DNA of 64,000 nucleotides from Candidatus Obscuribacterales bacterium (GTDB lineage: Bacteria; Cyanobacteriota; Vampirovibrionia; Obscuribacterales; Obscuribacteraceae): the NCBI GenBank assembly GCA_965228855.1, contig CBDDIJ010000002.1, positions 2,336,001-2,400,000 on the forward strand, read 5' to 3'. Positions 2,287 to 12,230 of the stretch are shown here, piece by piece; position 1 is the first letter of the stretch, and every line of letters begins with the position of its first letter. The translations under genes were made by a program, and so were the position numbers. The notes under the pieces are model-generated. The model did not search any database and was not told the origin of the DNA. It saw only the letters and a program-made list of their open reading frames with translations.

Positions 2287-3909
2287 TTGGATGAATGCAG
2301 TTGTGGCTGGACAAAGAGGTGCGGAATGGATTCAGCAGAGCGAATGCGAAGCATGTGCGAGATACCGGCTCGAAAACCTTCGTTTGCAGACACTGCTTGG
2401 TCGGAGTGTGCTGCTGGTGCTCCTGGAGTTAGTGCTCTGGTTTTCGGCACCGTAGATGGTGTCAAAGAGCAGTTCGACAAATATTCGCGTGGCACAATTT
2501 CCCTTCCTGTGTTGGAGATAGCAGGTGCGGTTGGGCTTGGAGTGGCGCTTAACGCTGCACCGAAATGGCTGGCTGTGCCTGCCGCAGTTGTCGGCGGCGC
2601 AGGCTCATTACAATATCTGCAAGAGGTTCAAACTACTGCATCACGAGTTTTGCCGGCACTAACCGAACGAAGTTCGACGGCGGAGCGAACTCGAAAAATC
2701 GTGGCTTCCGAGGTCGGACCGCTTGCTTCTGAAACGGTTTGTCTGGCGGCGCTCGGTCTCGTCTCTTCCGGTTTTACCTCGCATGTCGCAGGTCGGATAG
2801 AGCGACCTTCTAAGTTGTTGCAGATTCGGAGATCTAAGTCTCATTTCGAAATTGGAACGGAGTCGAATCTGTCCGATTTTCGAAGTTACAAATTACCGCA
2901 TGTGGATCTGAGGTACTTCGCTCCAACCGCCGCTTCTCATAGTCGTTTGCATTACTTCGATGTTTCAAAACTTCAGCGAAATGGCTTCGGCGAAAATGCG
3001 ACGCTGAAGTTTTCTCCCTATATGCAATTGACGAATGACGACGCAAAACATTCGCTGATAAAACAGTTTCAGTCATCTCACAAATGGAATTCTTCACCAG
3101 AAGGGTATGTGAGAGTTCCTATTCTACCGCGTCAGTATTCCAATGTGGCTCTCGGTTTACGACCCAAGACCCATGCCGACAGTAAGTTATATGAATTCGC
3201 GAAAGACTCGATTGTTCAAGTTCATGGAGTCGGTTCCGACAATCAGGCTTGGAGCGGTTCGGGATTTTTCGTCGAACGGGACGGTAAGATTGCGACGGCT
3301 TTGCACGTTGTCGCTGACGCTAAAAAAGTGCGAGTAACATCCAGTGATGGTATTAAATATGATGCCGCCTTAATTGCTCATGACTTTGATTCCGATACCG
3401 CCATCCTGAAGGTGCACAGTCTCGGAACAACGTTTAAACCCCTTCAGTTGGCGGCATCTAATGAACCTGTGAAGAGCGATGTTTTCCTCTTCGGCCATCC
3501 GGCAGGTTCGAAAACCATGTTTATGTCTCCCGGATTATTTCATCGTAAAGGTTATGAGCGGGCATATCTGTCCCCAACGGACAGTAATGAAATCCTTTAC
3601 CGCGGGCGAGTCTTCGAGACCAGGGCCTATTTCTTGCATGACCGGAAAGGAAACTCCGGTGGTCCGGTTTTAAATTCAGACGGCAAAGTTATCGCGCTGC
3701 ATACAGATGGCGATCTGCATGCGTGCAATTCTTATGATGAAGTGAGAGTCGGTGTTGGTGCAGCATCTAGCGAACTGTCAAAGTTGTTGGTCCTGGCGCG
3801 AGGCAAAGAAGACACGTCGCATCAAATATGGAGACCTCATCTCCTCTTTCCGCGCGAAACGGAGTCGCTGTCAGCCAGAAATCGATGGTGGTCGTTTCTC
3901 TTGCCGTGA
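2287..3909 (+). CDS. Trypsin-like (S1C) serine protease with long N-terminal extension
   Basis: C-terminal GSGFFV, TALHVV (His), DTAILKV (Asp), GNSGGPVLN (Ser). No PDZ seen. Start uncertain (ATG 2326 possible). Confidence 0.8.
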   Translation: MDECSCGWTKRCGMDSAERMRSMCEIPARKPSFADTAWSECAAGAPGVSALVFGTVDGVKEQFDKYSRGTISLPVLEIAGAVGLGVALNAAPKWLAVPAAVVGGAGSLQYLQEVQTTASRVLPALTERSSTAERTRKIVASEVGPLASETVCLAALGLVSSGFTSHVAGRIERPSKLLQIRRSKSHFEIGTESNLSDFRSYKLPHVDLRYFAPTAASHSRLHYFDVSKLQRNGFGENATLKFSPYMQLTNDDAKHSLIKQFQSSHKWNSSPEGYVRVPILPRQYSNVALGLRPKTHADSKLYEFAKDSIVQVHGVGSDNQAWSGSGFFVERDGKIATALHVVADAKKVRVTSSDGIKYDAALIAHDFDSDTAILKVHSLGTTFKPLQLAASNEPVKSDVFLFGHPAGSKTMFMSPGLFHRKGYERAYLSPTDSNEILYRGRVFETRAYFLHDRKGNSGGPVLNSDGKVIALHTDGDLHACNSYDEVRVGVGAASSELSKLLVLARGKEDTSHQIWRPHLLFPRETESLSARNRWWSFLLP

Positions 3910-9570: not shown

Positions 9571-10128
9571 TTACTTGTTTCCTGCGCCTGCGGTGAACTT
9601 GCCATAATAGTTTTGATGGTACTGCTCGGCTGCATAGAAGACTTTAGCCGGCTCCAGCAAACTCTTAGCGGCTTCCTGACTATAGCCAAGCGATGATAAA
9701 ACGTCTGCGGCTTCGCGCTTTTGCTGCTCGTCCTGATAAAAGATTGCCGCTCGATACTGACTGGTCGACTCTGTGGAATACCGCTGCGGTTTAAATTCTG
9801 TGAGGTAATGGCGAATCAGGTTTTTAAACGTCAACTCTTTGGGATCGAAAAGAACCTGCACAGCTTCTGCGTGACCGGTTTTTCCGCCGCAGACATCTTT
9901 ATATGTAGGGTTCTTAGTGGTACCGCCCGTGTAACCAGATGTCGCGTGTTTGACACCTTTAATTCGTTGAAGCTCCGCCTCAACACCCCAGAATCATCCA
10001 GCGGCGAGAACGGCTTTATGCAAGTTGCCTTGCTCCGGTAATTTCGCGATAGTGGTGTCTTTGAAGAGCATTATGCAAACCAGGTATCCAGCAATCAGAA
10101 GCAGTATCAAATTCAGTGGTCCGTTCAT
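9571..10128 (-). CDS. msrA: Peptide-methionine (S)-S-oxide reductase, probable selenoprotein (in-frame TGA at 9996-9994, codon 45)
   Basis: Reading through one TGA joins two track ORFs into 185 aa: KAVLAAG-[TGA]-FWGVEAELQRIKGVKHATSGYTGGTTKNPTYKDVCGGKTGHAEAVQVLFDP...QYRAAIFY...FYAAEQYHQNYY. GGAG RBS before ATG 10128. The MsrA identity is firm; Sec versus nonsense mutation is inferred. Confidence 0.85.
9961..9996 (-). other. Putative bacterial SECIS element
   Basis: mRNA UGA-UUCUGGGGU-GUUGAGGC-GGA-GCUUCAAC-GAAUU: 8-bp stem (one G-U pair), G-first 3-nt loop 17 nt after the UGA, possible lower stem GAUUC/GAAUU. Confidence 0.7.
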
Positions 10129-10144
10129 AGTCGTCGCTCCGGCC

Positions 10145-10690
10145 CTATCCTTCCAGTATAAGCATTGGGAGATTTCGTGCCACACGTTTGAATATCTGAT
10201 AGTCTCTCAGCGCGCGGGAAACAATGAGTGAACCTTCGATGGCGATGAGTGCATTTTCTGCTCTCTCCCTTGCCAGTTTTTTATTTAAACCATTCTCGAC
10301 GGCCACACCTGCGATCGCTTCGATCCAGGCTTCGAGGCTTTGCTGAACGAGCTCTTGAAACGGAGCGCTTGCAGCTCCTAGCGTCAAACCCTCAACAATG
10401 CATCCTTTCCGTCCACCGTCATAGAACTCTTCGATGGTTTTTGCCATGGTCGCGAGCTTCAGCTCCGGTTTGCCCTCCGCTTTGAGCGGTGCGATGAAGT
10501 GTTCTCTAACTGCTGAATCGATGTGTCCAAGCACTTCGCGGGCCATTTCTTCCTTTCCGCCGGGAAAGTGGTGGTAAAGACTGGACTTGCCTAGACCAGT
10601 AGCCTTCGAGACCTCGCCTATGGAAACGCCCTCATAGCCTTGTTGGCGAAACAGCTCCAATAGTTCATTAATCAGTGCGGTCTTGTCCAT
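10145..10690 (-). CDS. TetR/AcrR family regulator (LmrA/YxaF/NemR-like)
   Basis: LFRQQGYEGVSIGEVSKATGLGKSSLYHHFPGGKEE HTH; GCIV motif; AAGGAG RBS. Confidence 0.93.
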   Translation of the reverse strand: MDKTALINELLELFRQQGYEGVSIGEVSKATGLGKSSLYHHFPGGKEEMAREVLGHIDSAVREHFIAPLKAEGKPELKLATMAKTIEEFYDGGRKGCIVEGLTLGAASAPFQELVQQSLEAWIEAIAGVAVENGLNKKLARERAENALIAIEGSLIVSRALRDYQIFKRVARNLPMLILEG

Positions 10691-10712
10691 GATTCAGCTC
10701 CTTGCGAACGGA

Positions 10713-10741
10713 AGCGTACCGAACATTCGGTCGCACGTCAA
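10713..10741 (-). promoter_or_regulatory. Sigma70-type promoter of tetR-msrA with embedded palindromic operator
   Basis: Minus strand TTGACG-17 nt-TACGCT; GTACCGAACATTCGGT at 10716-10731 spans the spacer and -10. Confidence 0.8.
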
Positions 10742-10760
10742 CGGCGGAGGTGTTTTGGGC

Positions 10761-10798
10761 AAAAGCACCAGATGCGATGCTATCTGCATCGCCTGGTG
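10761..10798 (-). terminator. Probable intrinsic terminator after the PNPOx-like gene
   Basis: Stem CACCAG..GCGATGC / GCATCGC.CTGGTG followed by TTTT on the minus strand. Confidence 0.55.
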
Positions 10799-10840
10799 TG
10801 GTGTCACCTGTGTAATCGGCTGGACTTCGTCGGTAGCTTA

Positions 10841-11764
10841 TTACTTCGGGTTGAACGGAGAGGCGTCGATGAATTCGAGTTCGAAAGCAGGTATGGTAGC
10901 TCTTTGCCAATGTTCTATATCCAGCGTCCAGAAACGATTGGTACCACCAGTTTCACCGTTTGGATCTTCCTGATCAAGAAGAACCGCAGCTCGTCCGGAT
11001 ATCTGAAGGCTTTGACGGGCGGCAAAGTCTAGAATGATGACACCGGCTCTATCGTTCAGCTGCAGATTGCCGAACGAATTGAACATGCTATTGCCTGCGA
11101 AGTCCGGCACACGAAGCTGCTTTCCGTCGACCACGCGAACAAACCCTTGCTTGCCTCCTCGATGGGAAATATCAAGGTTGCCTTCCGGATTCGAGGTTGC
11201 GGCAAACATCGTATCGCTATTTTGGATAAGCGCAATTTCTTCGGCTTGGAGCGTGGTTCCTCGAGCTAGAGATGTGGTTAATATCGCGTTTTTGTCATCC
11301 GGCAGTCTAACCTTTCGACGCTGAATATATTTCGGGCAGAGTGGAAAGGATTCCTCGACCGCGATGAGCAGCTGTTCTTCAGTATGTGTGGAAACTCGCC
11401 CGTTGATCTTCAACCGTCTTCTCGTGTCCAGTTCGATCAGTAGAGTTCCAACGCGCGGGTCGTCGCTGATGTTTGTCAGCAATGGATCACCTTCTATGCC
11501 AATCGACTGCGTCAAATCAATATTTAATTCCCTGGTGCTCGGTGCGTGCATGAAACCAGGCTTTCCGAAGAGCATAGACGCCCAGAGATCGCCAGTGGAA
11601 TCTTCAGAAGCGACCACGACCAGCGGTTGGCGATCAATGAAATTCAAGGCGCCACCAAGAATTTCACTCTTAACCGCGACAGAGTTCATCATCGCGATAT
11701 CTCGCTCGCCCGTTCGCTCTTGTATGTCGAGCTCGCCTTCATGAAATGGCCCATCAGAAAACAT
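10841..11764 (-). CDS. Pyridoxamine 5'-phosphate oxidase-like FMN-binding protein (two split-barrel domains)
   Basis: PFHEGELDIQERTG, WASMLFGKPGF, TRRRLKING, CPKYIQRR, DISHRGGKQGFV, PDFAGNSMFNSFGNL. Confidence 0.9.
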   Translation of the reverse strand: MFSDGPFHEGELDIQERTGERDIAMMNSVAVKSEILGGALNFIDRQPLVVVASEDSTGDLWASMLFGKPGFMHAPSTRELNIDLTQSIGIEGDPLLTNISDDPRVGTLLIELDTRRRLKINGRVSTHTEEQLLIAVEESFPLCPKYIQRRKVRLPDDKNAILTTSLARGTTLQAEEIALIQNSDTMFAATSNPEGNLDISHRGGKQGFVRVVDGKQLRVPDFAGNSMFNSFGNLQLNDRAGVIILDFAARQSLQISGRAAVLLDQEDPNGETGGTNRFWTLDIEHWQRATIPAFELEFIDASPFNPK

Positions 11765-11849
11765 ACGCTACTCCTTTCTGGCTCAAGGTGCCGGTTTCTA
11801 TCATCGAATCCGTCACCTTGAGCGCAGCACCATGGCCGGTGACTCTGAA

Positions 11850-12230
11850 TTAGAAGTTCACAATCGTGTATCCATCGCTGATCAATTTACGCAAACTGGT
11901 GACACCTGAAGTTCCTGGAACTGTGTTGTCTTTGATTAATGCGTAACCTTCTTTTTCCGCGTCTTCCGAGGCTCCGAACACGTCGGCGCAACCGCAAGAG
12001 ACGCCGGCGACTTTGTCTCGAACCGCTTCGTAAAGTTCGTGTGCCGGGTGATCCGGTTTTCCAAGTTGTCCGACCCAGCGAGTGCCGGCGCCTTGAAACA
12101 TAAGCGTGACGTCGTCGCCGTTTTTCTTAAAGTCGTAAGTGGCAGCGAGTGCGTTGAACAAGCGACCGAGCGCTTCTTCATTGCCGTTTTTCGGATCTGA
12201 GTAAACGAGAATTGCAGTCTTCATTGGCAT
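11850..12230 (-). CDS. DsrE/DsrF-like family protein
   Basis: GRLFNALAATYDF...DVTLMFQGAGTRW...SCGCADVFG...LISDGYTIVNF; AAGGAG RBS. Confidence 0.8.
   Translation of the reverse strand: MPMKTAILVYSDPKNGNEEALGRLFNALAATYDFKKNGDDVTLMFQGAGTRWVGQLGKPDHPAHELYEAVRDKVAGVSCGCADVFGASEDAEKEGYALIKDNTVPGTSGVTSLRKLISDGYTIVNF

Follow-up and report, generated by a model that had tools for sequence, protein, structure and literature searches.

Sec-MsrA, with its GUFWG/H motif, is given as an experimentally verified selenoprotein family in the accessible text of PMC13188914, and the available portion of PMC4479559 credits the Sec form of Clostridium oremlandii MsrA with 20-fold more activity than its Cys mutant. 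Cyanobacteria are reported to be without the Sec trait in the accessible parts of PMC1794560 and PMC9312934, which concern oxygenic genomes, and the cyanobacterial entries in the available part of PMC5029168 have an orphan SelD only. The phylum Cyanobacteriota is unmentioned in the accessible text on deep-Sep (PMC12013277), and the part of BSepDB (PMC13326102) that was available includes at least 18 Vampirovibrionia genomes, with none named Obscuribacterales among the rows listed. No published report of the Sec trait in Obscuribacter, Sericytochromatia, Melainabacteria or Vampirovibrionia was found in the literature open to searching, and subscription papers could hold one.

The locus described here is in a 64,000 nt stretch of an Obscuribacterales genome, referred to as the window (GenBank assembly GCA_965228855.1, contig CBDDIJ010000002.1, positions 2,336,001 to 2,400,000). 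It includes an msrA gene with TGA at the catalytic position, and on genomic grounds the probability that this TGA encodes selenocysteine, in a real selenoprotein gene, is put at roughly 0.94. The features of the locus are:

9571..10128, minus strand: msrA coding sequence, 185 aa with predicted Sec at residue 45 (profile scores, alignment, predicted fold)
9994..9996, minus strand: in-frame TGA at the catalytic position, GUFWG (translation, ortholog and metagenome conservation)
9966..9984, minus strand: SECIS-like hairpin, 8-bp stem and 3-nt loop beginning GG (fold, codon freezing, pairing)
10066..10122, minus strand: N-terminal hydrophobic helix, residues 3-21 (model helix, hydropathy)
9889..9891, minus strand: Cys80, the sole conserved Cys, with no C-terminal Cys (alignment)
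10137..10140, minus strand: GGAG, a ribosome-binding-like site 8 nt before the ATG at 10128 (sequence)
10145..10690, minus strand: gene for a TetR-family regulator, upstream, 16 nt before msrA

The first-pass annotation had proposed that a single TGA interrupts an otherwise intact MsrA at its catalytic site, and this description holds. The sole internal stop in the minus-strand frame 10185-9571 is the TGA at 9996-9994, within AAG-stop-FWG, and the GYTGG, NPTY, TGHAE, QYR and AEQYHQNY motifs are all present in the read-through product. This product scores 137.3 bits against TIGR00401 (cut-off 108.1) and 153 bits against PF01625 (cut-off 23.7), and the catalytic motifs are invariant across 15 aligned MsrA rows. 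The gene starts at ATG 10128 and stops at 9571; GTG 10185 was rejected as the start, as it is inside the upstream TetR gene and orthologs begin at the position of ATG 10128. Among 18 loci, TetR is beside msrA only in the host genome (G000) and the near-identical G193, and in this set msrA was not found to belong to a conserved operon, whether with TetR or with some other partner. A promoter and terminator scan at the msrA locus gave a result at chance level. The region upstream of msrA on the same strand (window 10145-12230 (-)) carries genes for the TetR regulator, a PPOX-type flavoprotein and a small protein of 126 aa.

A hairpin with its loop 17 nt after the UGA had also been noted initially, and was located at 9984-9966 (stem 9984-9977, loop 9976-9974, stem 9973-9966) with the same measured spacing in our own scan. 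Its position and early loop G fit the bacterial SECIS consensus. The 60-nt fold behind the UGA has a z of -2.8. Taken alone, the hairpin is modest evidence because equally stable ones are found behind 33 of the 1290 TGAs that terminate long ORFs and behind 56 of 5000 random TGAs, and the weight of this evidence lies instead in its conservation across the aligned genomes. Codons for invariant residues are monomorphic at 5/5 hairpin columns versus 1/27 elsewhere (15 sequences, mean identity 72%), with a Fisher p of 3e-5 that overstates the difference because the genomes are related and not independent. Stem pairing is kept in 99.3% of cells of a 17-sequence alignment, in which 6 of the 8 pairs never vary, one varies on one side and none on both sides; with 500 of 500 shuffles equal, this alignment is uninformative on covariation. 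Of the two signals that had been proposed as a check on relatives, TGA/Cys alternation is seen, in a protein designated P0002 (see below), and two-sided covariation of the hairpin is not (0/8 pairs); in a wider set, one change on both sides is seen, in the pair that closes the loop. The encoded protein likewise constrains the stem. At least 6 of the 8 pairs are retained in the window's register by 26 of 34 distinct TGA-form sequences versus 12 of 82 Cys forms, and the other 8 TGA forms, with 5 pairs or fewer in this register, may use another hairpin.

The host assembly (8.2 Mb, 6 contigs, 95% complete, 5.8% contaminated) contains all four of the genes, selA, selB, selD and tRNA-Sec, for which a genome-wide search had been suggested, and they are spread over three contigs. 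SelA scores 520 bits over the TIGR00474 cut-off, SelB, encoded on the same contig as the window, reaches a summed 267.5 bits (cut-off 242), SelD is the Cys form, and the tRNA-Sec has a UCA anticodon, is present in one copy and scores 73.5 bits on RF01852. That the UGA is translated as Cys or Trp, either through reassignment across the genome or through a suppressor tRNA, is very improbable against this background. Cys at the UGA would give the normal MsrA active site, but TGA ends 708 of 2339 long ORFs, which does not fit a UGA-reassigned code (table 4 or 25) and bears out the earlier statement that TGA is an ordinary stop here, the triplets at 3907, 32201 and 58072 all being TGA. The only UCA tRNA among the 74 called is of the Sec type, which argues against a suppressor, and a Cys or Trp reading leaves the selected hairpin unexplained.

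In 401 genomes searched from the class, 16 close msrA orthologs (51-100% identity) were recovered, all within the host's family of 104 genomes. TGA is at the site in 16/16 ortholog loci, the others being 51-98% identical to the window gene; one is from a near-identical strain and another (L035, genome G190) looks broken downstream. Hence 15 other genomes keep the TGA down to 51% identity, and the downstream frame is intact in 14. A metagenome pattern allowing any TGN codon found TGA in 7/7 matches, three of which share one protein and one of which is near the window's own, so the TGA is not private to this strain, a point on which comparison with relatives had been recommended. The in-frame UGA aligns with Cys in 82 Cys loci and in P0002, a Cys-form ortholog that is 60% identical and nested in the Sec-MsrA clade. 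The P0002 protein is uninterrupted and has Cys where the orthologs have the UGA; its hairpin-coded residues are changed and it has three C-terminal Cys.

Two database entries for orthologs (131 and 123 aa) start behind the UGA and are without the active site, so annotation misses Sec-MsrA, as had been anticipated for standard gene calling. Products of this kind are what would be expected if translation truly stopped at the UGA, releasing a 44-aa peptide, and restarted to make the C-terminal part, or if the hairpin were a regulatory element. This explanation is nevertheless slightly less probable than a Cys or Trp reading: neither database piece contains the catalytic motif, the segment preceding the UGA is conserved and corresponds to MsrA strand 1, and P0002 has both parts in a single protein. 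Least probable, with a negligible chance, is a nonsense mutation or assembly error in a dead msrA copy that would be dispensable given the three intact Cys-type MsrA paralogs in the genome, since, despite a private TGC-to-TGA change known elsewhere in the assembly (in carbonic anhydrase), the conservation of the msrA TGA refutes it and contigs from two runs of other studies, with dozens of differences nearby, have none at 9994-9996 or in the hairpin. The carbonic anhydrase TGA, at a zinc-ligand Cys (L053:441-1130 (+) = G000:C5:1258618), was itself rejected as a selenoprotein codon, with TGC or TGT in 19/19 relatives, one of them 98% identical; it is a nonsense change or an assembly error, and a control for a mere stop. 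For the msrA TGA, assembly error, pseudogene formation and global recoding are rejected, and we infer recoding of the UGA from genomics with high confidence.

Further Sec-MsrAs occur in the family. Among weaker matches flagged for an internal TGA, the TGA is at the catalytic site in 16 of 17, and it is also there in L036 and L041; L038 and L130 were left out of the active-site codon reading. Sec-MsrA is present in at least 31 of the 104 family genomes, a lower bound because it comes from the 150 of 329 matches listed. Each of these 31 genomes carries at least one of selA and tRNA-Sec, and 28 carry the two together. L217-L225, L227-L233, L036 and L041 represent additional Sec-MsrA lineages, most with N-termini that are signal-like by eye and several with a C-terminal Cys. 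A single origin of all Sec-MsrAs in the family is not supported: a quick MsrA tree of 74 rows, from which near-duplicates and roughly half the outgroup had been omitted, requires 5 Sec/Cys changes, 3 of which are forced by strong branches.

The predicted structure of the window MsrA (pLDDT 78) gave 45 structural matches at E <= 0.001, and those listed are nearly all MsrA entries. Hydropathy over 19 residues at the N-terminus is 1.85-2.96 in 13 of the 14 members of the clade; the remaining one is cut at a later ATG. There is no C-terminal Cys in 14/14 clade rows, and Cys80 is invariant. In the proposed mechanism, SelB would bind the hairpin behind the UGA and deliver Sec-tRNA(UCA) made by SelA and SelD, and the ribosome would read through the UGA to complete the 185-aa protein. 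By homology, Sec45 is expected to reduce methionine-S-sulfoxide, attacking oxidised methionine in proteins with formation of a selenenic acid as in MsrA chemistry. The lack of a C-terminal resolving Cys in all 14 rows suggests that an outside thiol partner probably recycles Sec-MsrA, as in the 1-Cys type, and Cys80 might serve in this step. The idea of a TlpA-like selenoprotein as the obligate MsrA reductant is not supported, since it was found in just 4 of the 16 genomes that have an ortholog. Hydropathy and the model make it very likely that residues 3-21 are a membrane anchor, probably uncleaved, which would tether MsrA to the membrane; the periplasmic side is somewhat favoured over the cytoplasmic side. 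The host genome encodes three DsbD-type membrane domains, and these could feed a periplasmic enzyme.

A scan of the host genome found no Sec-formate dehydrogenase and seven more selenoprotein candidates, namely SelW-like, ArsC-like and TlpA-like proteins and four of an unnamed group. The SelW-like CxxU protein (L050:574-918 (-)) and the ArsC-like UxxC protein (L051:500-844 (+)) each have a hairpin, score over NCBIfam cut-offs and belong to known selenoprotein families. The third is a TlpA/ResA-like lipoprotein with UxxC (L052:432-1379 (-) = G000:C5:1078754) that is present in 11 of the 104 genomes, with TGA in 11/11 loci parsed and apparent compensatory changes in its hairpin. The unnamed group includes three paralogs of about 350 aa (L054:286-1353 (-), L055:220-1293 (-) and G000:C3:1903093-1904022 (+)) whose N-termini resemble signal peptides and whose genes contain an in-frame TGA together with a conserved hairpin. 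This UGA-split family is found in 88 of 104 genomes, with TGA at one site in 30/30 loci read and four frozen hairpin codons, and is absent from 9 of the 10 genomes that have neither selA nor tRNA-Sec. Its Cys homologs are labelled Planctomycetota. It has no match in Pfam or NCBIfam at E 0.01, its predicted fold (pLDDT 58) has no structural match at E <= 0.001, relatives give weak thioredoxin-like hints, and no recognisable entry is present in the 119-family table of the available part of PMC13188914. It is probably an undescribed selenoprotein family. Its entries are split at the UGA in protein databases and, because annotations truncate the affected proteins, ordinary searches do not see the selenoproteins of these genomes, this large unnamed family included.

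A distant relative of this family (L056:384-1460 (-) = G000:C3:1338742; hhalign 96%) has a Cys-TGA dipeptide and a similar hairpin. At L057:189-1391 (-) = G000:C3:1875419, an in-frame TGA without a good hairpin separates the frame of a short membrane protein from that of a cytochrome c-like lipoprotein, and these are probably two genes. Also seen in the genome were 21 tRNA genes, some atypical, clustered on one strand (G000:C3:724518-727973), and a second cluster of 5 (C3:1529761-1530653); a mobile element is a possible origin.

No photosystem II reaction-centre gene is present in the host genome, consistent with the first-pass suggestion of a non-photosynthetic cyanobacterial relative. Within its family, selA is found in 83 and tRNA-Sec in 87 of the 104 genomes. 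In other families of the class, selA is over the cut-off in 5 of 42 chosen genomes, from two families (3/3 and 2/2), and it is found in 0/169 genomes of the largest small-genome family. In the phylum sample, selA is over the cut-off in 24 of 401 genomes. PF00124, the photosystem II reaction-centre family, is present in 0/24 of these selA-positive genomes and in 3/3 genomes picked from two selA-negative families (selA 0/25 and 0/45). One of the selA-positive families clusters with entries that carry the label Sericytochromatia. NCBI already names SelA in some Sericytochromatia entries, so the sel genes are annotated there even if unremarked.

In a quick SelA tree, 26/26 phylum sequences are on one side versus 16 of Bacillota/Desulfobacterota type (SH-aLRT 97). 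The grouping fits inheritance and then loss in oxygenic cyanobacteria, which is favoured rather than shown because the outgroup has few members, taken from the best matches of a single query, the branches are long and the compositions differ. A joint reading, which we rate at even odds, is that Sec decoding was ancestral in Cyanobacteriota, was kept in non-photosynthetic branches, and was lost on the way to the oxygenic cyanobacteria and, in a separate event, in the class's small-genome families. Obscuribacterales would then use it for a mostly exported redox selenoproteome, made up of anchored or secreted Sec-MsrAs of several lineages and the undescribed multi-copy thioredoxin-like family split at the UGA, and not for formate dehydrogenase or SelD. 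The host bears on a question left open in 2006, in the accessible text of PMC1794560, of whether the absence of Sec in the cyanobacterial phylum reflects undersampling or loss. Since non-photosynthetic sister groups commonly have the trait, and none of the sampled photosynthetic families was found to have it, a loss could be placed relative to the rise of oxygenic photosynthesis and put to a phylogenetic test.

Compared with known systems, the window MsrA has its catalytic motifs and fold in common with Cys-type MsrA (TIGR00401, PF01625), which includes the periplasmic MsrA domain of Neisseria PilB, but differs in having a predicted Sec, no C-terminal resolving Cys and a divergent segment before QYR. 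The host has all four genes of standard bacterial SelA/SelB/SelC/SelD decoding, with a SECIS-like element directly behind the UGA; unlike the standard examples, it belongs to the phylum Cyanobacteriota, its sel genes are scattered, its SelD has Cys, and no Sec-formate dehydrogenase was detected by the scan. The bacterial Sec-MsrA family has the same GUFWG/H motif, whereas the hosts named in the accessible parts of PMC13188914 and PMC1794560 are Clostridium and Syntrophobacter, with no mention there of a membrane-anchored form. The Sec-MsrA of Clostridium (Alkaliphilus) oremlandii (PDB 4lwj, 4u66) shares the MsrA fold, the catalytic Sec and the lack of a C-terminal resolving Cys, with 36% identity and a Foldseek E of 1e-8, and the window MsrA is no closer to it than to the Cys MsrAs of poplar (39%) and Neisseria (38%). 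According to the available portion of PMC4479559, the C. oremlandii enzyme is 209 aa long, has no Cys and is recycled by glutaredoxin, whereas the window MsrA carries a hydrophobic N-terminal helix and a single conserved Cys, which is internal. What is newer here is the host, as our searches did not find the Sec trait of non-photosynthetic Cyanobacteriota in print. The Sec-MsrA family itself is known; the window form adds an unusual predicted N-terminal anchor and has no C-terminal resolving Cys.
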